Under the pieces are notes generated by a model. The model was not told where the DNA came from. It was given only the letters and a program-made list of their open reading frames with translations, and searched no databases. A stretch of DNA of 64,000 bases, taken from the NCBI RefSeq assembly GCF_044324875.1, contig NZ_CP172185.1; one strand, written 5' to 3'. The position numbers were made by a program, and so were the translations under genes. This document shows, in pieces, positions 2,225 to 19,802 of the stretch. Origin of the DNA: Escherichia coli. GTDB taxonomy: Bacteria; Pseudomonadota; Gammaproteobacteria; Enterobacterales; Enterobacteriaceae. Positions within the stretch are counted from its first letter, which is position 1. Every line of letters starts with the position of its first letter.

Positions 2225-4195
2225 TCAGAACGTATACTCGATACCTGCCCAGAAATTGCGACCTTCTTCAATAAACCCTTCACTGTAGGCATATTTGGTA
2301 TCAAACAGGTTATTGACCGACGCATTGACGCTGAAGCCATGACCTAAGGTGTAATCGGCTCGAATGTGGGTCACCGCAAAACCGGCGGCTTTTTGTGAAC
2401 CGTCACTGTTGCTGTAGCTGGAGGAACGCGCCTCTTCCGACAGCGTTACGCTTAACGGCTCCCACGGTTTGAGAGTCATCCATGCGGTCATTGTCTGCGT
2501 TGGCAGATCGGTTATCTTGCCGATGTCTTTGCGTTTGGCGTCAGCGTGGATCAGGGCGTAGCTCAATCCTACATCCAGTATATTGCTGATTTTCCCCTTA
2601 ATACCGGCATCCAGACCGCTGTAATCCACCGTGCCGCTGTTCTGATTTTGAATGGTATCGGCATCGATATTGTGCGAGAGGATGGCATCACTCACCCGGT
2701 TATAGTAAACGCTGACCTCAAACCCCCAGTCGTGCGTGAAGGCACCATTCCAGGTTAAATCCACCCCGCGCGCGCGTTCCGGTTTGAGCTGCGGGTTAAC
2801 AATCGCTATCTGGTTATACGCAGGTTTGGACGTGGTATAGCGTTCTTTCAGCGTCGGAAAGCGTGTGCGGTCATAGTACGAAAGCGCCAGCGTGTCTTCA
2901 TTGGCAAAGTGGTATTTCCCCATCACCTGCCAGTTAAAAGCTGACTGATTGTTGTCGTCATAATGGGTGATGCTTCCATCTTTCTCATGTTTTTTCGCTT
3001 CTACGCTATCGCGCCAGTCATAGCTGATTCCAGCCACGACATCGACATTATCGGCAGCAGCCCATTGATATTCACTGGCGAGCGACCAGGTACGATCTTC
3101 ATAGCGATCGTAAGCGGCGTGCGGCGCACCTTTTTCCCGGTGTACGTCATCTTTCCAGTTAACGGCAAACGACAACAGATCGTTTTCACGCACATCGGCT
3201 GCCAGTTGTAACCCGGCACCGTCGCTGTAATCGGAATAATGGCTGTAGCTGCCTTTTTTATTTTTCAAATCAGCCAGCGAGTTGTACATCATTAGCGTAT
3301 TTTCAAAGGTGTCGCGATACAGCCGACTTTTCAGGGTAAAACGATCGTTTAGTTGGGTCGTTCCCTGATAATAAAAACTTTCTTTGTCATACTCTGGCCA
3401 CTGCCAGTAGCGTGATTTCTGACCACTATTTCCACTGTATGGCGGGTTATCTTTTTCACCATCCTGCTTAATGTAAGTCAATGTGTATTCATCGTTTTCG
3501 CGTGGTGTAAAACCGAGCTTCACAATGCCGCGTTTATCATCAGCCGATGAATTAATCATCTTGCCGTGTTTGCCTGCAATATCATTATTTACACCATGCG
3601 GCAGGCCGAGAAAATCCTGCTTTAGCTGGCTACCGCTGACTTGCAAATACCCCAGATCGCTGCTGGCGGCAAATGAAGCATGCATATCGTAGGCATTGTC
3701 CTGGCTACGGCTCCATCCCTGGCGATATCCCAGATTTGCTTCCAGAGGTTTTGTTGGCTTCTGGGTGGTGATATTAATGGCTCCGCCCATCTGATTAGGC
3801 CCCTGAAGCAGCGACGAATACCCTTTGGAAACTTCAACTGCCCCCAAATTGTTGGTCAGAATCCGCGCCAGATCGAGGTTGCCGTCATAGGGAACATAAA
3901 TGGGCACACCGTCGAAATAGACCGGCACCTGACGACTATCAAAGCCACGAACTTTGACCTGTTCTTCGTTGCGGCTACCTGACTTTTGCAGCACCACGCC
4001 GGGGACGACACTTAATGCCTGAGCGACATTCTGTTTATCCAGGGCCTTCATGGTGGGTTGATCGAGAACGGTGGTCGTCGTCGATGATACCGGACTGGAC
4101 CATACGGTCAGCGTGTCACTCTCCTGAGCCGCTACGGCCTGCTGGGTAAAGGCAAGTGATAATGCTGTGCAGAGATAACGTTTTTTGAGTCTCAT
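2225..4195 (-). CDS. TonB-dependent outer-membrane receptor (substrate unknown)
   Basis: ORF 2225..4216; the likely start is the ATG at 4195 (the 4216 start is TTG). It has a signal peptide (MRLKKRYLCTALSLAFTQQAVAAQ), a TonB-box-like DTLTVW, a plug and long beta-barrel, and a C-terminal aromatic residue (…AGIEYTF). No counterpart at this position in K-12 as I remember it. Confidence 0.85.
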   Translation of the reverse strand: MRLKKRYLCTALSLAFTQQAVAAQESDTLTVWSSPVSSTTTTVLDQPTMKALDKQNVAQALSVVPGVVLQKSGSRNEEQVKVRGFDSRQVPVYFDGVPIYVPYDGNLDLARILTNNLGAVEVSKGYSSLLQGPNQMGGAINITTQKPTKPLEANLGYRQGWSRSQDNAYDMHASFAASSDLGYLQVSGSQLKQDFLGLPHGVNNDIAGKHGKMINSSADDKRGIVKLGFTPRENDEYTLTYIKQDGEKDNPPYSGNSGQKSRYWQWPEYDKESFYYQGTTQLNDRFTLKSRLYRDTFENTLMMYNSLADLKNKKGSYSHYSDYSDGAGLQLAADVRENDLLSFAVNWKDDVHREKGAPHAAYDRYEDRTWSLASEYQWAAADNVDVVAGISYDWRDSVEAKKHEKDGSITHYDDNNQSAFNWQVMGKYHFANEDTLALSYYDRTRFPTLKERYTTSKPAYNQIAIVNPQLKPERARGVDLTWNGAFTHDWGFEVSVYYNRVSDAILSHNIDADTIQNQNSGTVDYSGLDAGIKGKISNILDVGLSYALIHADAKRKDIGKITDLPTQTMTAWMTLKPWEPLSVTLSEEARSSSYSNSDGSQKAAGFAVTHIRADYTLGHGFSVNASVNNLFDTKYAYSEGFIEEGRNFWAGIEYTF

Positions 4196-4220
4196 AGAAT
4201 AAATTCCGTTTAACAAAGAA

Positions 4221-5075
4221 TTAAATAGAGGCTGCGGGTTGCAGACTGACTTTAATGTCAGCTGGTGTCGCGTAATAAGGCGCGGAGGTAATAAAAAGGC
4301 GAATGCCGCAGTCGAGGTAATTTTTGAGTGTTGTCAGATTAATTCCACCGGTCAGAGCCAGCGTGCAGTGAGGAGCCAGCGACGGTGCTATTTGCGCAAT
4401 TTCAGTTGCCTGTTGCGGACTAAATTTGTCGAGCTGAAGTACGTCTGGTTGCGCGCGTAACGCGGCGATTGCCTCTTTCGGCGTGTCGGCTTCAACAACT
4501 ATTTTCTTCTCGGGTGCGTGGCGACGTAACTGATTGATTGCGCCTGACCAGTCCTGATTGTCATGAAGAAAATGACGGTGGTTGGCAAACAATAATATGG
4601 TTTCCGCACATCCGGCACGATGAATCAGTCCTCCGGCAGCCAGAATTGCCTGCGAGGCCAGTAAGCGGGTGCCCGGAATCGCTTTTCGGGTGCAGGCGAT
4701 ATTGCCATCAGGGTAACGTTCACGAAGTAACGCCAGCATTTGAGCGAGATAATCAGAAACACCGCAACTCCACTCCAGCACATTCTGGACTGCCTTCCAT
4801 CCCTGATGAAGTGCTGCGGCATTACCCTGCGCACGGATTAGCCGCTGACGCGCGTTCGCTTGTGAACCGTCGCTGACCGCGTCATCAATAGTTAATCCCA
4901 GCGTAGTTAACATCTTACACGCGACAGAAATTCCGCTGACGCAGCCGCCCTGACGGTGAAAAAACTCTATATAGCCATGCTGGTGTCCAATATTTAATGC
5001 TCGCGTGGTCAGGTCACCGCCCTGGATATCTTCCAGAAGTAACGCATCGATTTGTGCCTGAGAAAGGAAAATCAT
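4221..5075 (-). CDS. ModD-like protein (NadC / quinolinate phosphoribosyltransferase fold family)
   Basis: 284-aa ORF with blocks alignable by eye to NadC (…TRKAIPGTRLLASQAILAAGG…, …VVEADTPKEAIAALRAQPDVLQLDKF…). Family assignment is from motif recognition only, with no profile search. Confidence 0.6.
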   Translation of the reverse strand: MIFLSQAQIDALLLEDIQGGDLTTRALNIGHQHGYIEFFHRQGGCVSGISVACKMLTTLGLTIDDAVSDGSQANARQRLIRAQGNAAALHQGWKAVQNVLEWSCGVSDYLAQMLALLRERYPDGNIACTRKAIPGTRLLASQAILAAGGLIHRAGCAETILLFANHRHFLHDNQDWSGAINQLRRHAPEKKIVVEADTPKEAIAALRAQPDVLQLDKFSPQQATEIAQIAPSLAPHCTLALTGGINLTTLKNYLDCGIRLFITSAPYYATPADIKVSLQPAASI

Positions 5076-5884
5076 CGCAGTGCCTCTTGCGGTACGCTAT
5101 CCCACCAGATGAGCGCCCAGTCGCGGCTGGCAGGGGCGAGGGCACGAGCATCTTGTTGTTGATACCAGCGATATAACCGCTCACGCTCATCGTCGTTAAG
5201 TGCGCCCAGACTCCAGCTGACGTTCTGCTCAAAACGTTCCCAGGTGCTGTTATCCTGTTGGCAATTTTGTCCACGGATAAAATCAACGTGAGCATAAATT
5301 CCCATCTGATACAGGACGTTGAGCGCAAAGATATAGTTGGGTAATTCGATCACTTCCCGACCAGCCGCCCGCTGAATGGCTGGAGAGACGAACGAGGTGC
5401 TGACCAGATGAGTCGTATAGACGCGAAGCCGTGCCTGATTATTCAGTTTGCTCATTGCCTGGCGCATATCAGCCACCAGAGTGGAGCGGGAAGCCACGGC
5501 AATATCGCAGCGTGGCAGGTCACTCCAGTCCTCTTCCCAGGCGCGCTGGATCCAGTGGACATTGTCTGCCTTTAGCGCGGCGGCGCGACGGGCGGCAACC
5601 TTCAGCATCCCCTGACTGTAATCAACGCCATAAATCGTCGTGAGTTTGTCAGCCAGCGCCAGCGATACGGTACCCGGTCCGCAGCCCATATCGAATAAGG
5701 TCTGCGCGCCTTGCAGATCAATTTTAGCGGTCAGTTGTTGCAGGTAGCTGTCCGTAGGCGAGGCGCAATTTTCCGCCATTTTTTCCGCCCGTTGATCCCA
5801 GTGATCCGGCGTTTTTTCTGTGCGGTGGGCCAGTTTGAGTTGCTGCAGGTAAAGGTCCGCAAAATCAATATCATCAATGAGCAT
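5072..5884 (-). CDS. Class I SAM-dependent methyltransferase
   Basis: 270-aa ORF with the Rossmann motif I LFDMGCGPG and acidic motif II (IYGVDYS); start overlaps the ModD-like stop by 4 bp (ATGA), indicating translational coupling. Confidence 0.7.
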   Translation of the reverse strand: MLIDDIDFADLYLQQLKLAHRTEKTPDHWDQRAEKMAENCASPTDSYLQQLTAKIDLQGAQTLFDMGCGPGTVSLALADKLTTIYGVDYSQGMLKVAARRAAALKADNVHWIQRAWEEDWSDLPRCDIAVASRSTLVADMRQAMSKLNNQARLRVYTTHLVSTSFVSPAIQRAAGREVIELPNYIFALNVLYQMGIYAHVDFIRGQNCQQDNSTWERFEQNVSWSLGALNDDERERLYRWYQQQDARALAPASRDWALIWWDSVPQEALR

Positions 5885-5893
5885 GATTGTTCC

Positions 5894-6652
5894 TTAGTGG
5901 CTAATTGCAGAGAGGTGATGATGAATCTGGTCGGCAGAAACCCGATACAGGGCAGCCAGTTTGTTCGTTGTTAACTGTTCGGTCGGTAAGCCTTGTGTTA
6001 CTCGTCCATCTGGCTCTACCTGGATAATGCTGTCGGCAATGGCGTTGGCATGGAGCGGATGATGAGTCGACATTAGCATTGTCATGCCGTTATTTTTGAG
6101 CTGCGCCAGCGTGTCCAGTAGTTGGATCTGATGACCGAAATCGAGGCTGGAGGCAGGCTCATCCAGTAATAACAAGCGCGGTTGCTGGACGAGTGCACGG
6201 GCGATTAAAGCCAGCTGACGTTCACCGCCGCTAAGCGTATTCCAGCGTCGTGTCGCCAGATGCAAAATGCCCAGCTTTTCCAGTTGCTCCGTTGCTTTCA
6301 GGCGTTCTTGCTTACCGGGAACGGAAAAAGCGCCTATGGTGGGGGCCAGGCCCATCAACACCATATCCAGCACACTAAAAGCAAAAACGCCGTCGTGCGC
6401 CTGCGGCACCCAGGCAATAGCCTGCGCGCGTTGGCGATGGCTGAGTGTCTGCACAGGGAGGCTATCCAGTAAGATCTCGCCTTTTCATAACGGTATAACG
6501 CCAAGAATGGAGCGCATGAGTGTGGTTTTGCCGCAACCATTGGCTCCTAACAGACAACAAATTGTTCCTTGCGACAGGGTGAAGGACACGTCGCGTAGCA
6601 CCGGATGGCGGGAGTAACCCAGAGACGCATGACGGACGGCAAGCAAAGTCAC
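5894..6652 (-). pseudogene. ABC transporter ATP-binding protein (FecE/BtuD-like) interrupted by an in-frame TGA
   Basis: Track ORFs 6485..6790 (Walker A GANGCGKTTLMRSILGVIPL) and 5894..6454 (LSGGERQ signature, Walker B LLLLDEP) are in the same frame, separated only by TGA at 6485-6487 (complement). Read through, the sequence is contiguous (…ILGVIPL*KGEILLDSLPVQTLSHRQRAQAIAWVPQ…). The proposed GTG start at 6652 overlaps the permease stop (GTGA). Confidence 0.8.
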
Positions 6653-7629
6653 TGGCGACCTCCGCGTAACAACAAAAACAGGAAAAACGGTGCACCAACA
6701 AAAGCGGTCAGAATGCCAAGTGGGATTTCTGTTGTTCCAATGCTGCGTGCCAGCGTATCGGTAAGCAGGAGCAGAATCGCGCCAGTACACATTGCCATGG
6801 GCAACAGCTGCTGATGGTTATGACCGGTCAACAAGCGAGCAATGTGCGGAACGACCAGGCCGACCCAACCAATTATGCCCGCTATTGCTACCGTGCTGGC
6901 GGTGATTAGTGTGGCGCAGACAATTAATCCAAAGCGCAGACGTGTCACGTTCAGTCCCAGCGAACGGGCTTCGTCGTCGGAAAGCGTGAGTAAATTCATG
7001 CGCCAGCGGAGAAAAAACAGGGGCAAGGAGCCTATGAGAATGATCGGTGCAGCATAGCAGAGATCGCGTAAGGTCACGGTGGACAGCCCCCCCAGCAACC
7101 AGAAGGTAATTGACGGTAACTGGGTGTAAGGATCGGCCAGCGTTTTTATTAGCGATATCCCCGCTCCGCACAACGTTCCTAACGCAATGCCTACCAGCAC
7201 CAGGGTTAAGATCGGATCGTGGCGGGTCACCCGACGCGTAATCAACCAGACGCCCGCGACCACCATCAGCCCGCCGCAAAATGCGTACAGCTGGATGTAA
7301 ACAATGGATAATCCCCACAGGATTGCCGCGCAGGCACCAAGTCCGGCACCGGCGGAGACGCCTAAAATATCCGGTGACACTAAGGGATTACGGAACATTC
7401 CCTGATAGGTGGTTCCGGCCCCTGCCAGCGCCGCGCCCAGAAACAGCGCAGCAAGAATACGCGGCACGCGGATTTGCCAGAAGACAATTTGTTCCTGCAC
7501 AGGAACATTTTCTTGACGAAGAATGAGCGCCAGCAGTTGCTGTATATCGAGATGATAAGCCCCACTTACGGCGGCAAAAGTGATACTGATAGCTGCCAGC
7601 AGCAAAATACATCCGTTTACGGTTCTCAT
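6649..7629 (-). CDS. ABC transporter permease, FecCD/BtuC family
   Basis: 326-aa multi-helix membrane ORF typical of iron-siderophore/cobalamin-type permeases; start overlaps the binding-protein stop (ATGA). Confidence 0.85.
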   Translation of the reverse strand: MRTVNGCILLLAAISITFAAVSGAYHLDIQQLLALILRQENVPVQEQIVFWQIRVPRILAALFLGAALAGAGTTYQGMFRNPLVSPDILGVSAGAGLGACAAILWGLSIVYIQLYAFCGGLMVVAGVWLITRRVTRHDPILTLVLVGIALGTLCGAGISLIKTLADPYTQLPSITFWLLGGLSTVTLRDLCYAAPIILIGSLPLFFLRWRMNLLTLSDDEARSLGLNVTRLRFGLIVCATLITASTVAIAGIIGWVGLVVPHIARLLTGHNHQQLLPMAMCTGAILLLLTDTLARSIGTTEIPLGILTAFVGAPFFLFLLLRGGRQ

Positions 7630-8651
7630 TAGCTCGTCACCAATTTTTGATAGTCGGCGTCACTTAATGGGCAATGCCAGAACAGTTGGGCGTAATGCTG
7701 CATGTCACTTTTAAACTGGCGATTGATGGCGGGATCCAGCCAGGCGTGAAGTCTGCGTAATCCCAGAAGACGGTTGATTCCCGGCGGGGCATCCAGCCAG
7801 CCAAAGGGCAGGCCACTTAAAAATAAGATGCGTTGTTCCGCAACCGCTTTCACGCCCTGCCAGAGAGGATCACGACGAATAAAATCTGCAGTAACGGCCT
7901 CCTGAACCAGAATAATATCCGGCTGCCAGCGCAGGAGATTTTCCATGGAAACCTGTGTCAGACCGTGGCGATCGGCTATTTGCGCGACGTTATGCAAACC
8001 TAATAATTCCGCCGCCTCGGTATGCAACGAACCCTGTAAGCCCGTTTCCAGCCCTCGAGGACCGCGCGCAGCATAAAAGCTGAGGTTAGCGGCGGGTGAG
8101 GTGGCGAATGCCTGAGCTTCACCAACGAAGCGGCTGGCGAGATTGGCTTGTTCTGCGGCGCGGTGCTCTTCGCCTAACGTTTTGCCAAGCGTTGTTAACT
8201 GTTCTGCTGATTGTTCCAGTTTCCCGTTAAGCAATAACCAGGGTATTTGTGTCTGTTCGCTAACCTGCCGTGCCTGGGAGATCCAGGTTTCATCCGTATT
8301 GCCGCAATCAACGACCAAATCGGGATGTAACGCCATAAGCCCTTCCAGCGAGAGTGTGCTGGCGCGCCCGGCGAGTCGTCCCAGCCTGGGTAACTGGCGA
8401 ATGTGCTCTGGCAATGGAATTAATGCCTGACGGGCAAAATCAAAAGAGGAAAAACCGACCATTTTTTCTGGCGCGACAGCCAGCAATAGCAAATCGGCGG
8501 GCGCACCTGCGCTGACGATGCGTGTAATGTTTTGGGCTTCGGGAAGCGTCAGTGAGGCCCAGAATTTGACTGATTGTGCAAAAGAAGGCAGATGATGCAG
8601 GAACAACGTCGACGCAAGAATCTGTGTAAACCTCCGTCTGGTTAGTGACAT
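7629..8651 (-). CDS. Periplasmic substrate-binding protein of the ABC importer, with a twin-arginine-like signal
   Basis: 340-aa ORF; N-terminus MSLTRRRFTQILASTLFLHHLPSFAQS has T-R-R-x-F, a hydrophobic core and an AxA-like site; first gene of a six-gene minus-strand operon. Confidence 0.75.
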   Translation of the reverse strand: MSLTRRRFTQILASTLFLHHLPSFAQSVKFWASLTLPEAQNITRIVSAGAPADLLLLAVAPEKMVGFSSFDFARQALIPLPEHIRQLPRLGRLAGRASTLSLEGLMALHPDLVVDCGNTDETWISQARQVSEQTQIPWLLLNGKLEQSAEQLTTLGKTLGEEHRAAEQANLASRFVGEAQAFATSPAANLSFYAARGPRGLETGLQGSLHTEAAELLGLHNVAQIADRHGLTQVSMENLLRWQPDIILVQEAVTADFIRRDPLWQGVKAVAEQRILFLSGLPFGWLDAPPGINRLLGLRRLHAWLDPAINRQFKSDMQHYAQLFWHCPLSDADYQKLVTS

Positions 8652-8920
8652 AAGTTATATCCTGATAATTAAAACCGCTATATATTTACATATATATCGA
8701 AAAAAATCATGTTTGATGTCAAAATTTGTCTAAAGAGACAGAATGATTTGCTTGTTGCTTAAATAACACTTTGTTCCACAAGAAAATTGTCAGGGAGAAT
8801 GGCGGAGTGGCAAAAAATATAAATAGAGGTGTAATGATTAACAAATTGATAAAATAAAATTAAAATCTTCTCTGATAAAAGAAAATAAAGGCATAGACCG
8901 TAGAATGGGGGGCATTTCGT

Positions 8921-8967
8921 GGCGAAAAAAGAGCAATGCCAATTTTATGCACATAATGGCATTGCTC
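8921..8967 (-). terminator. Candidate intrinsic terminator downstream of treA
   Basis: Perfect 11-bp inverted repeat GAGCAATGCCA (8931-8941) / TGGCATTGCTC (8957-8967) with a 15-nt loop, followed on the minus strand by a T-tract (complement of GGCGAAAAAAGA). Confidence 0.6.
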
Positions 8968-8981
8968 GATATACAGCAAAG

Positions 8982-10679
8982 TTAAGGCGTAGGTTCCGCC
9001 TCTTTTTGTTTTACCGGCTGTGTTGTTGATTCACTGAGTGGACGCGTCGCCGGAACATTGTCACACGGTTGCTCTTTCGGGCAGAGCAAATCCAGCATTT
9101 TCAGCGTCACGCCATTGGTCCAGCCAAAGCCATCCTGTAATGGATATTCGCCACCGCCGCCCCCTGTTCCGGTGGTGCTGACATCATATTTCTCGACCAG
9201 CTTCTTCTCCCGGTCATAAGTGTGCTGAACATTGGTCAGGAAGTGCCAGCTAATGTCCATCGCCACCTCGTTCTGCCCGTAGTTTTGCAACCCTTCTGTC
9301 GCCACCCATTGCAGGGGAGCCCAGCCATTTGGCGCATCCCATTGCTGTCCACTTTTCACCGACGTGGTGTTCAGGCCGCCTGGTTGCAGCAGATGTGTTT
9401 TCGTCGCCGTCGCCATTTTGTTGGCGCGATCTTTCGCTGCCGCATTGACGTACAGCGGGAACAGGGCGGCAGCGGTTAACTGATTGCGCACTTTATGACT
9501 TTTCAGGTCGTAATCGGCATACCAGCCTTGTTGATCGTTCCACAGGTATTTTTCGATCCCTTTTTGACGGGCATTCGCCAGCGTTTCGTACTGGTTTGCC
9601 ATCGCGTTATCTCCGGAAGCTTTGCTGGCGCGGGCGAGGATTTTTTCCATTTTAAACATCAGGCTGTTCAGATCGACCGGTACGATGCTGGTGGTGCGTA
9701 AGGTATTTAACTGCTGCGGATTGTCCATCCAGCGCGAGCTGAAATCCCAGCCAGACGCAGCGGCAGAGCGCAGGTCGCGGTAAATTTCAGTGGCAGGTCG
9801 ATTCGGATTGCTTTTGGCGGTGGCAATATCTTCCACCCATGACTCTGGTCGTGGCGTATCGCGATCGTCCCAGTAGCGGTTGAGAAGGGTACCATCCTGA
9901 AGTTTTACAACGCGTTTTTCCTGTTGTCCGGCTTGCAGGTTTTCAACACCGTCCATCCAGTAAGCATATTCTTTTTGCATTTGCGGCAGGTATTGCTTCA
10001 ACGCGGCATCGCCTTCATGCTGCGCCAGTAACTCTACCATCAGGGCAAAGAAGGGCGGCTGCGAGCGACTTAAATAGTAACTGCGGTTGCCGTTGGGAAT
10101 ATGACCGTAAGTGTCTATTTCATGAGCAAAATTGGCCACCATATCCGCGACTTTATCCCAGTGACCGCTTTCGGCAAGCCCCAGCATGGTGAAGTAACTG
10201 TCCCAGTAATACACTTCGCGAAAACGTCCTCCCGGCACGACATAGGGTTCCGGTAACGGCAACAGAGAATCCCATTTCTCGGTACTTTCGGTAGAACGGG
10301 TTAACACCGGCCAAAGTCCGTCTATATGTTCGCGTAGTGATTGCCCCTCTGGCGGAACATATTTCTCGCCCTCTTTCGGCAGGGTGAAATTGACGTTAAC
10401 GAAATGGCGCAGATCAAATCCGCTCTGGTTTTGCTGCATCCGATAATCAGCAAGGATCATCAGCGGATCGCTGTTCGGCACGGCATCGGCAAAGGTTTTT
10501 TGGTCCGGAAAAAGTTTGGCGTTTTGCACATCATTAAACAGCGGCCCTAATAAAATATCAGGCGGCTGTGGCGTTACCGGTGTTTCTTCTGCCTGCACCG
10601 ATAGCGCAGCGAAACACAAAAAGATGCAGGTTGGAATTAACGCCATTTTTAGCGGGCGAGAAGCTGCGGGGGATTTCAT
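8982..10679 (-). CDS. treA: Periplasmic trehalase
   Basis: ORF 8982..10682; the protein ([32 protein letters not shown]…) is recognised as TreA with signal peptide. The start is placed at the second Met to match the remembered 565-aa protein. Confidence 0.93.
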
Positions 10680-10997
10680 CAATCATTCTCCTTTGGCGAA
10701 ACCGAATAAAACGGTATTCAAGTATCAGAAAACCTTAGTTCAGGATCGCACTAGCTGCATGATCGAAATCTCATTCTGCGAACGGTCAGGCATTTTAGAA
10801 AAGGGAATTAAAGGGATAAATAACGTCGAAATAGAGTGAACAAATAACGTCTGTTTGTTAGCCAGCCAGCGGCGTTGGGTTCGCGATTAGCGAAGAAAAA
10901 TCATCACAAATTGGTGAAAAATATAACAGGTAGTTAAAAACATCCGTGCAGAGTAAATAGCCGGATGACATCAGAACGATGCCATCCTAACTGTGGT

Positions 10998-12416
10998 TTA
11001 ACCCTGACGGCTGAAACGTTGCGTTTTAACGTCCAGCGTTAGCGTTTCTTCTGGTTGTATCGCATACAGTTTCTCACCCTGCTGGCAAATCCAGCCAATC
11101 CCCAGTTCACGGGCGATCAGGGCGCTGTGGGATAGCGGACTTCCGGCGCTAAGGCAGATACCTTTTACAACCGCCGGATCCAGTTGCAGTATTGTGGAGG
11201 GATAGATGTTCTCCGCCAGTAGAATAGTTGGCGAGTTAAACTGCGGGAGTTCTTCTTTCGTTTGGGTCAGGTGGACCAGGGTGCGATGCAGAAGATCGTC
11301 CACATCAATATAGCGAGCCTGTAGATATTCATCATCCAGTTGCTGGTATTGCTGGCTAAGTTCTTTAAGAACTTGCTGCCAGGCATATTCTGCCGTGCAA
11401 TGTTCATGCTGAAGGAGTTCGCTTGCCGCTGCCAGCAGTTCCGGATCATCTAACAGTGTATGGTGACCAGAAAAGATTGCGGCAATATCGTCAAGCCCGC
11501 TGGCTTCTGCTTTCGCTGTTAACGTCATCAGATCTAATAACGTGAAGTCAATGGCCTGGCGTAATCGTTCTTGTTCTTCATCCACGGTCAGGGTTGATTT
11601 TGCCTGTACCGTACATAAAACCGGTTGATAATAAAAGGTTTTACCCGAAACAGGCGGAACGGGACGCAGAATAGGTGGAGCAACTTCCTCCGTTTCACCA
11701 AAGTTATCTTCAGCCAGCTGACGGAAAGCGATCAGTGCCTCTTCAGCTTCTGGCCCTTTCGCAATCAGGCGCAGCGTATCGTTATAGCGAACTTGTAGTA
11801 ACGCAATCTGGTTAATACTCTCCGGTGTGACGCATTTGCCGTTTTTCTCCAGCAACATATCGGCATTAAATGTCGATAAGGTATAAACCAGCCGGGAGGC
11901 CGGACGTACATGCAGGCCGTTACGGTTTTTAATGACCACCGCCAGAGAACGGGCTTCTTCATCGTAGGCAGGACATGACTCAGAGATTTCAGTGTCGGAG
12001 GAGGGTAAACCCAGTTGTTCACGTTTGGCTTCCAGCGCATGCATGGCGTCAAAGATAACTTTGTCGATATCCGCCCCCGAGGCCGCGCTGACCGTTGCTG
12101 CCAGTGTACCTTCGACCAACGGCGCAGCACACAAACGTACTTTTGCGGCGATCTCGGGAGCCAGCAATTCCAGCGCAGTTTCAGCACTCAATAATGCGCT
12201 ACCCATATCCATCATGACCAGCACATGGTCGGCATCGGCAACAGATTCGATGGCCTCCATCACTTTGACGGCATCGGTACCAATGGGATTTTGTGGATCG
12301 TCAATTCCCGCGGCAATGGCGATTTTACAACTATCACTCATTAACATCTGACGGGCTAATTCACCGACACCTTCTCCCAGTCGGCTGCTATGTGAAACTA
12401 TGACCAGGTTTACCAT
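10998..12416 (-). CDS. dhaM: Dihydroxyacetone kinase phosphotransferase subunit DhaM (PTS EIIA-HPr-EI fusion)
   Basis: ORF 10998..12422; the sequence from MVNLVIVSHSSRLGEGVGELARQ… is recognised as DhaM. Confidence 0.92.
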   Translation of the reverse strand: MVNLVIVSHSSRLGEGVGELARQMLMSDSCKIAIAAGIDDPQNPIGTDAVKVMEAIESVADADHVLVMMDMGSALLSAETALELLAPEIAAKVRLCAAPLVEGTLAATVSAASGADIDKVIFDAMHALEAKREQLGLPSSDTEISESCPAYDEEARSLAVVIKNRNGLHVRPASRLVYTLSTFNADMLLEKNGKCVTPESINQIALLQVRYNDTLRLIAKGPEAEEALIAFRQLAEDNFGETEEVAPPILRPVPPVSGKTFYYQPVLCTVQAKSTLTVDEEQERLRQAIDFTLLDLMTLTAKAEASGLDDIAAIFSGHHTLLDDPELLAAASELLQHEHCTAEYAWQQVLKELSQQYQQLDDEYLQARYIDVDDLLHRTLVHLTQTKEELPQFNSPTILLAENIYPSTILQLDPAVVKGICLSAGSPLSHSALIARELGIGWICQQGEKLYAIQPEETLTLDVKTQRFSRQG

Positions 12417-19547: not shown

Positions 19548-19802
19548 TTGGTGAATATTTTTGGTAATAATCCTAATTGGTTATGGGATTTTCGCTTGAT
19601 GTATCTGCATAACAAAAACAATATGAGCCATTTTTGCATTACTAATAAGAAAAAGCAAAAAACATCGATATTCATTTTTGATCAATGGATTTTCTGGCAT
19701 ATCGTTATTATCGTGATACTGGTTATCATTTTCATCTTGCCAGGATCGCACGTAATCACGTTATTCGGGGATTTTATCTGCGGGATATTACCCTTCAGGT
19801 AA
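19548..19802 (+). CDS. Hypothetical small hydrophobic protein (84 aa) in the AT-rich ycgV-ychF intergenic region
   Basis: ORF-track entry only; the product has a long hydrophobic stretch (IFWHIVIIVILVIIFILPG). No obvious RBS and a very AT-rich context, so it may not be expressed. Confidence 0.2.
   Translation: MVNIFGNNPNWLWDFRLMYLHNKNNMSHFCITNKKKQKTSIFIFDQWIFWHIVIIVILVIIFILPGSHVITLFGDFICGILPFR

Follow-up and report, generated by a model that had tools for sequence, protein, structure and literature searches.

A probable twin-arginine signal on the binding protein of a FecCD-type importer with a ModE-type operator in Escherichia coli

FhuD, the binding protein for ferric hydroxamates such as ferrichrome that serves the FhuBC importer of Escherichia coli and Salmonella, is listed among the substrates of twin-arginine translocation (Tat) (PMC7549933 Table 2; PMC8262268 Table 1). 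The protein analyzed here is encoded in a 64,000-nucleotide stretch of the E. coli contig NZ_CP172185.1 (the window), by a minus-strand gene at positions 7629-8651, and is a 340-residue substrate-binding protein of the cluster-A / Peripla_BP_2 type (PF01497, E 7.5e-17). An earlier note on this DNA had reported a T-R-R-x-F core at the start of the protein, and translation of 8571-8651 confirmed it: the reverse complement of this interval encodes residues 1-27, MSLTRRRFTQILASTLFLHHLPSFAQS. We conclude that the binding protein is probably targeted to the Tat pathway, a feature for which FhuD, as a Tat-exported binding protein of a FecCD-type importer, is a precedent in the same species. The two proteins likewise combine a Peripla_BP_2 domain, a FecCD-type importer and a signal with an arginine pair, FhuD beginning ISRRRLLTAMALSP... 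and the protein in the window LTRRRFTQILAST..., and both signals escape the Tat models of Pfam and TIGRFAM. The mature domain of FhuD, however, is only distantly related to that of the protein studied here (match to the NCBIfam ferrichrome-binder model at E 0.1), and FhuD belongs to an iron regulon, whereas the operon in the window lacks a convincing Fur box and is preceded by a ModE-type operator. The Tat status of FhuD is supported by the literature; that of the present protein is predicted from its sequence.

Among characterized proteins, the nearest relative of the binding protein is MolA (HI1472), which binds molybdate and tungstate for the MolBC-A system of Haemophilus influenzae and is likewise a cluster-A binding protein of a type II (FecCD/BtuCD-like) importer. 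The MolA structure 3PSA is the second-best solved match to the AlphaFold model of our protein (Foldseek E 1.3e-15, template-modeling (TM) score 0.66-0.69), and at the sequence level the two show a weak resemblance over part of their length (phmmer E 1.1e-7, residues 214-286, ~20% identity). In H. influenzae, molABC adjoins modD (HI1470-1475; PMC3928620) and molB is repressed by molybdate (PMC4031551), a regulation that parallels the ModE operator described below. Unlike the operon in the window, the H. influenzae mol cluster as listed in PMC3928620 has no TonB-dependent receptor or methyltransferase named in it. The closest solved relative, both by sequence (E 4e-26 over residues 36-335) and by structure (E 9.5e-22, TM score 0.79-0.83, 26% identity), is 4PAG, a structural genomics entry from Sulfurospirillum deleyianum whose crystallized chain begins past the signal. 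The AlphaFold model itself (predicted local distance difference test 93, predicted TM score 0.87) has the cluster-A fold, and its top solved matches (4PAG, MolA, 4HN9, 4OVK, 2ETV, YiuA, BtuF, BhuT and CeuE) have cluster-A binding proteins in all the leading places. The assignment of the protein to cluster A is borne out by the PF01497 match, the two-lobed fold of this class, in which a long helix connects the lobes, and the adjacent genes for a FecCD permease and an ABC ATPase.

For the signal alone, a useful comparison is SufI (FtsP), a model E. coli Tat signal, the mature protein of which is unrelated to the binding protein. The amino-terminal (n) regions of the two are near-identical, MSLSRRQFIQAS in SufI and MSLTRRRFTQIL in the binding protein, and both have Q rather than K at position +5 of the motif. 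SufI differs from the binding protein in having many Gly, Ala and Cys residues in its hydrophobic (h) region and a Lys in its carboxy-terminal (c) region. SufI is detected by TIGR01409 (24.8 bits) and falls below the cut-off in Pfam (17.7 bits), whereas the binding protein is detected by neither.

The binding-protein gene is intact in this strain. No start codon lies between the upstream stop and its ATG at 8651, and direct reading of the sequence shows a Shine-Dalgarno-like AGGA at 8660-8663 (minus strand), 8 nucleotides (nt) before this ATG. Because the next in-frame Met of the open reading frame (ORF) is residue 64, no alternative start would drop the arginine pair. The twin-arginine motif, T4-R5-R6-R7-F8-T9-Q10 (8622-8642, minus strand), retains the S/T, R, R and F of the consensus S/T-R-R-x-F-L-K (also written S-R-R-x-F-L-K), with T and Q in place of L and K. 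Residues T4 to F8 with the following T fit the default TatP pattern, RR.[FGAVML][LITMVF] (PMC1182353), as RRRFT. Among 99 six-frame ORFs of at least 100 residues in the window, the binding protein was the only one to pass a Tat-like rule that demanded [ST]RRx[FL] or the TatP pattern among the 35 N-terminal residues and, after it, an uncharged stretch of 13 residues or more. The motif alone is not decisive, since the TatP pattern by itself also fits ~7% of Gram-negative Sec signals (PMC1182353); it is its conservation in homologues that lifts it beyond chance.

Word-indexed and exhaustive representative searches returned 269 homologous proteins, and the full-length homologues with distinct N-termini were binned by identity to the binding protein and scored for an arginine pair followed by a hydrophobic stretch. 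The combination was present in 29/31 at 70-90% identity, 30/31 at 55-70%, 16/17 at 45-55% and 8/9 at 38-45%, then in 7 of the 12 proteins at 33-38% and in 15 of the 74 below 33%. The earlier note had named orthologues without the pair as a finding that would refute it; of the 90 distinct N-termini sampled down to 38% identity, 85 have the pair, and the motif around it is T/S-R-R-x-F/L-L/A-Q. The default TatP pattern under-calls this family (Ala is common at +4, as in TRRMFAQ), and an alignment anchored on the arginine pair was used for the counts instead. In that alignment positions 0 and +1 are R R in 85/85, with no K at either; T or S stands at -1 in 76/85, F or L at +3 in 84/85, L, A or I at +4 in 79/85 and Q at +5 in 66/85. 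Further along, 31/85 have R at +14 and 61/85 have P at +17, and at the presumed cleavage site 69/85 have A at +20, with A, G or S at +18; the remaining h-region positions are highly variable. K and R are equivalent in the n-regions of Sec signals (PMC7317946), and the complete lack of K at both positions is for this reason the strongest argument for Tat. The pair is encoded differently from genus to genus: E. coli and Citrobacter use AGA CGG, Serratia uses CGT CGT and Shewanella CGC CGT, while two further loci have CGT AGA and CGC CGC, so the constraint acts on the protein.

Some proteins within this identity range depart from the pattern through gene calling: P0053 and P0056 are JGI calls that begin at an internal Met, P0085 has a mis-called N-terminus and P0142 is a truncated call. 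Of the others, P0114 carries the only variant of the pair, K-K-R, and P0133 has a truly Sec-like signal. The Citrobacter-like calls P0053 and P0056 begin MFAQLVAS... and lose the M-x-L-T-R-R n-region, so that automated predictors would not see the Tat motif. The statement in the earlier note that binding proteins of FecCD-type importers usually use Sec holds for the wider family, where 59 of the 74 relatives below 33% identity lack the pair and many are lipoproteins, but it overlooks FhuD.

The remainder of the signal was compared with the features set out in a review of Tat targeting (PMC7317946). The predicted signal peptide spans residues 1-25, MSLTRRRFTQILASTLFLHHLPSFA (8577-8651, minus strand), and from the sequence and the homologue alignment we infer cleavage by signal peptidase I at A25/Q26, where the site S-F-A|Q-S has small residues at -3 and -1. 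A run of 21 uncharged residues follows R7, against the 12 or more expected of an h-region, and helix-breaking residues, P22 and S23, stand at a distance of 16-17 residues from R6, within the 12-17 residues after the arginine pair at which a G, P or S is expected; the aligned place holds P in 61/85 homologues. In the AlphaFold model residues 5-20 are helical and are followed by a coil of lower confidence. The hydrophobic core is ILASTLFL, flanked by T, Q and HH, and the c-region holds H19-H20; K29, which would fall at +4 of the mature protein, supplies in part the basic charge expected for Sec avoidance. The hydrophobicity of the h-region is weak but within the range of known Tat signals of the species: its highest Kyte-Doolittle window of 10 residues reaches 1.48, against a mean of 1.81 +/- 0.32 for the 25 E. 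coli Tat signals in PMC7549933. In a softer comparison, 12 Sec signals of E. coli span 1.92-3.09 and all lie above the binding protein. Among diverse representatives of the family, too, signals with the arginine pair are less hydrophobic than those without it (2.11 vs 2.61; Mann-Whitney p = 0.009). Taken with the 85/90 conservation of the pair, the T/S at -1, the F/L at +3 and the varied Arg codons, the weak h-region gives good support to the Tat-like signal put forward in the earlier note.

Neither PF10518 (Pfam TAT_signal) nor TIGR01409 matched the binding protein at E <= 10, whether as the full protein or as the isolated N-terminus. In control runs the signals of SufI, HybO and CueO were detected by the curated Tat models, FhuD was detected by neither, AmiC was undetected by TIGR01409 and sub-threshold in Pfam, and TorA was undetected by Pfam. 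The negative result is weak evidence because the same models also miss FhuD. Within the family, P0124 (MAINRRQFLKSS...), a homologue 46% identical to the binding protein, scores above the Pfam TAT_signal threshold (26.1 vs 22.7 bits). A hidden Markov model (HMM) that we built from the 25 E. coli Tat signals gave the binding protein 9.7 bits and all 16 Sec-type controls 5.2 bits or less, while leave-one-out scores of the Tat signals themselves averaged 14.6 +/- 6.4, with 6 of the 25 below the binding protein. This home-made model is only rough support for Tat targeting. From its sequence the family signal is an atypical-looking Tat signal, with Q for K at +5 and a Leu-rich core, and dedicated predictors might return borderline calls for it.

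Several of these observations weigh against Tat targeting. At +4 (T for L) and +5 (Q for K) the motif differs from the consensus, Arg and Lys are absent from the E. coli c-region, so that Sec avoidance is weaker than in orthologues, the curated Tat models give no match, and the comparison with the Sec reference set is soft. In addition, the home-made HMM places the Citrobacter (3.4 bits) and Serratia (1.7 bits) orthologues in the Sec range, and in this strain a premature stop in the ATPase gene, described below, may leave the transporter inactive. The first alternative that these points suggest is an ordinary Sec signal with a chance Arg-Arg in its n-region, the protein being exported unfolded through SecYEG like BtuF, FepB and FecB. 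The silence of the curated models, the share of Sec signals that fit the TatP pattern, the lack of Arg and Lys in the E. coli c-region and the Sec-like scores of the two orthologues would all suit it, as would the Sec or lipoprotein signals that most distant relatives carry. We nevertheless regard it as unlikely, given that the arginine pair is invariant and free of K in 85/85 homologues while its codons change and the h-region around it varies, that the flanking T/S and F/L are conserved as well, that the h-region is less hydrophobic than every Sec control, and that the late Arg in the h- or c-region of many orthologues disfavors Sec.

A second alternative is a signal that is competent for both routes, used mainly by Tat and also usable by Sec. 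The E. coli allele, which has HH where orthologues have RH in the c-region, would be the most permissive form, for 31/85 homologues carry an Arg there that the E. coli signal does not have, and the existence of Sec-type relatives indicates that the fold is not intrinsically incompatible with Sec. On the other side, K29 could still serve as a Sec-avoidance charge, and the short, weak core is a poor one for recognition by SecA or the signal recognition particle; we consider dual targeting quite unlikely. The earlier note had also raised the possibility of a bound cofactor, and in its fullest form this would mean that Tat is required because a cofactor or ligand is acquired in the cytoplasm and the protein is exported loaded. 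The operon does encode two cytoplasmic enzymes, ModD and a methyltransferase. Nevertheless, we found no support for the suggestion and judge it very improbable: the model is that of a plain two-lobed cluster-A binding protein in which no cofactor-binding motif was identified, the Sec-type relative P0133 (38% identical) comes from a comparable cluster in which its gene neighbors one for a TonB-dependent receptor, and the Shewanella operon keeps the arginine-pair signal without having ModD. Several E. coli Tat substrates, namely SufI, AmiA, AmiC and FhuD, are themselves free of cofactor.

Tat export of the binding protein thus stands as the probable reading, and from the motif and the h-region we infer a dependence on Tat of the following kind. 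The precursor would fold in the cytoplasm before export, be recognized by TatBC through T-R-R-x-F and the low hydrophobicity of its h-region, and pass through the inner membrane in the folded state, after which signal peptidase I would cut behind S-F-A (A25|Q26). The mature, MolA-like cluster-A protein would pass its ligand in the periplasm to the FecCD-type permease and the ABC ATPase. In the periplasm of Achromobacter, ABC-transporter binding proteins are among the predicted Tat substrates that were detected.

The likely regulation of the operon points to molybdenum or tungsten (Mo/W). A palindromic ModE-type operator, CGATATATA-TGTAAA-TATATAGCG in the minus-strand reading, lies at 8676-8699, 25-48 nt upstream of the ATG of the binding-protein gene. 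The consensus for E. coli ModE is ATCGnTATATA-N6-TATATAnCGAT (PMC545781), and the putative operator fits its core CGnTATATA-N6-TATATAnCG perfectly. With up to 2 mismatches allowed, the 64-kb window contains no other match, and 100 shuffled sequences contained none. ModE-type boxes recur upstream of homologous operons at five other loci. In Shewanella dokdonensis (L006/L007) there is a perfect box upstream of the binding-protein gene and another upstream of the receptor gene (L006 11759-11782), and in Citrobacter (L002) and Serratia fonticola (L004) a box with 1 mismatch precedes the binding-protein gene. At locus L010 a perfect box (4878-4901) precedes the receptor gene, the first in a cluster of the order receptor-SBP-ModD-permease-ATPase (SBP, substrate-binding protein), and this cluster adjoins genes for a molybdopterin formate dehydrogenase (L010 457-4463). 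Locus L008 has a box with 1 mismatch (11579-11602) upstream of the receptor gene and one with 3 mismatches upstream of the binding-protein gene. Since the putative ModE operator is at the promoter, the operon is probably repressed by molybdate-bound ModE, and its sequence suggests a role in Mo/W acquisition under ModE control rather than in iron transport.

Regulation by Fur was considered and is unsupported: the best box in 8641-8990 matches at 13/19 positions, and 25 equally good ones occur in the window. The top Fur-box-like match of the window (16/19, GATACTGGTTATCATTTTC) is at 19715-19733, between the ycgV autotransporter gene and ychF. A consensus scan of 8600-9000 for sigma-70 promoters returned only weak matches on the minus strand (8816-8844 and 8786-8813) and none beside the operator. 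A perfect -35 hexamer, TTGACA, is present on the minus strand at 8717-8722 and was not reported as a promoter by the scan; it lies 17 nt upstream of the ModE box, and the box would therefore cover the -10 region.

The binding-protein gene is the first of a minus-strand operon that continues with genes for the permease, the ATPase, a methyltransferase, ModD and a TonB-dependent receptor. The FecCD-family permease (326 residues; 6649-7629; PF01032, E 2.5e-89) has a start that overlaps the stop of the binding-protein gene, and its best NCBIfam similarity, under the cut-off, is to BtuC. The ABC ATPase gene (5894-6652) shows ABC_tran matches on both halves and is interrupted by a premature TGA at 6485-6487. 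It is followed by genes for a cytoplasmic class I S-adenosylmethionine-dependent methyltransferase of 270 residues (5072-5884; Methyltransf_25/31 matches), weakly similar, under the cut-off, to the corrinoid-protein-associated CpaM, and for ModD (4221-5075), a 284-residue quinolinate phosphoribosyltransferase-like protein with QRPTase_N and QRPTase_C domains that matches TIGR01334 at 498 bits against a cut-off of 179. The last gene, at 2225-4216, encodes the TonB-dependent outer-membrane receptor (Plug and TonB_dep_Rec_b-barrel). This gene order is common to Citrobacter, where the operon occupies the same chromosomal site, to Serratia and to locus L008. The linkage to modD is kept in Citrobacter, Serratia, L008 and L010 and is absent in Shewanella. 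ModD and the methyltransferase are thus cytoplasmic enzymes conserved within a transporter operon, of which Shewanella has the methyltransferase without ModD. The gene for the Sec-type relative P0133 directly follows a TonB-dependent receptor gene, as in related clusters.

The TGA in the ATPase gene replaces codon 56. When the gene was aligned to the intact 759-nt gene of strain K_EC180, in which this codon is TTA (Leu56), the two differed by substitutions only. A frameshift between the two partial ORFs (6485-6790 and 5894-6454) was ruled out, as both are in the same frame and are separated by a single nonsense change of TTA to TGA. In K_EC180 (L001), the complete genome closest to the window, it is the receptor gene that is annotated as frameshifted (3827-5796), and treA has an internal stop (10583-12280); the broken genes at the locus differ from strain to strain. 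With the damage falling on different genes, the ATPase in one strain and the receptor in another, the operon may be decaying in some E. coli lineages.

The window covers the ycgR-ymgE / treA-dhaMLK-dhaR region of the E. coli chromosome. The segment 7400-8900 is matched at 90% identity or more by 2148 of 5426 complete E. coli genomes, making the locus strain-variable with a carriage of ~40%, and the best matches, at 99.7% identity, are swine isolates. RefSeq labels the binding-protein gene of the 99.7% identical locus 'iron ABC transporter substrate-binding protein', and the 'iron ABC transporter' of this name is probably a misnomer. We tentatively propose that the Tat-signal binding protein is part of an uncharacterized, ModE-repressed, TonB-dependent system for Mo/W acquisition that has been mis-annotated as an iron transporter. 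As it can be sketched at present, with some doubt attached to it, this system would comprise the binding protein, a type II ABC importer, the methyltransferase, ModD and the receptor, and its range would take in Citrobacter, Serratia and Shewanella besides the ~40% of complete E. coli genomes that carry the locus.

A full-text search, the coverage of which was incomplete, located no literature on the operon, its Tat signal or its ModE site, and the published matches for ModD mostly concern an unrelated DNA methyltransferase of the same name in Neisseria and Haemophilus. A TatP screen of an extraintestinal pathogenic E. coli strain listed 25 substrates, the binding protein not among them (PMC7549933), though carriage of the locus by that strain was unchecked. 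The binding protein is one more probable, strain-variable entry for the list of E. coli Tat substrates and probably the second FecCD-type binding protein of this species to be routed through Tat, after FhuD. Its signal is ordinary and its presence not surprising, and its identification is useful for annotation and for the reading of tat-mutant phenotypes. The conserved ModE operator on a supposed iron transporter is a more interesting lead than the Tat signal. If the proposed system is real, an energized outer-membrane step would exist for Mo/W uptake, perhaps of a chelated form, and the system would need for its own assembly the very Tat pathway by which the molybdoenzymes that it would serve are exported. 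The ModE operator, together with ModD and the resemblance to MolA, would make the role of ModD and TonB-dependent Mo/W uptake in enterobacteria directly testable.

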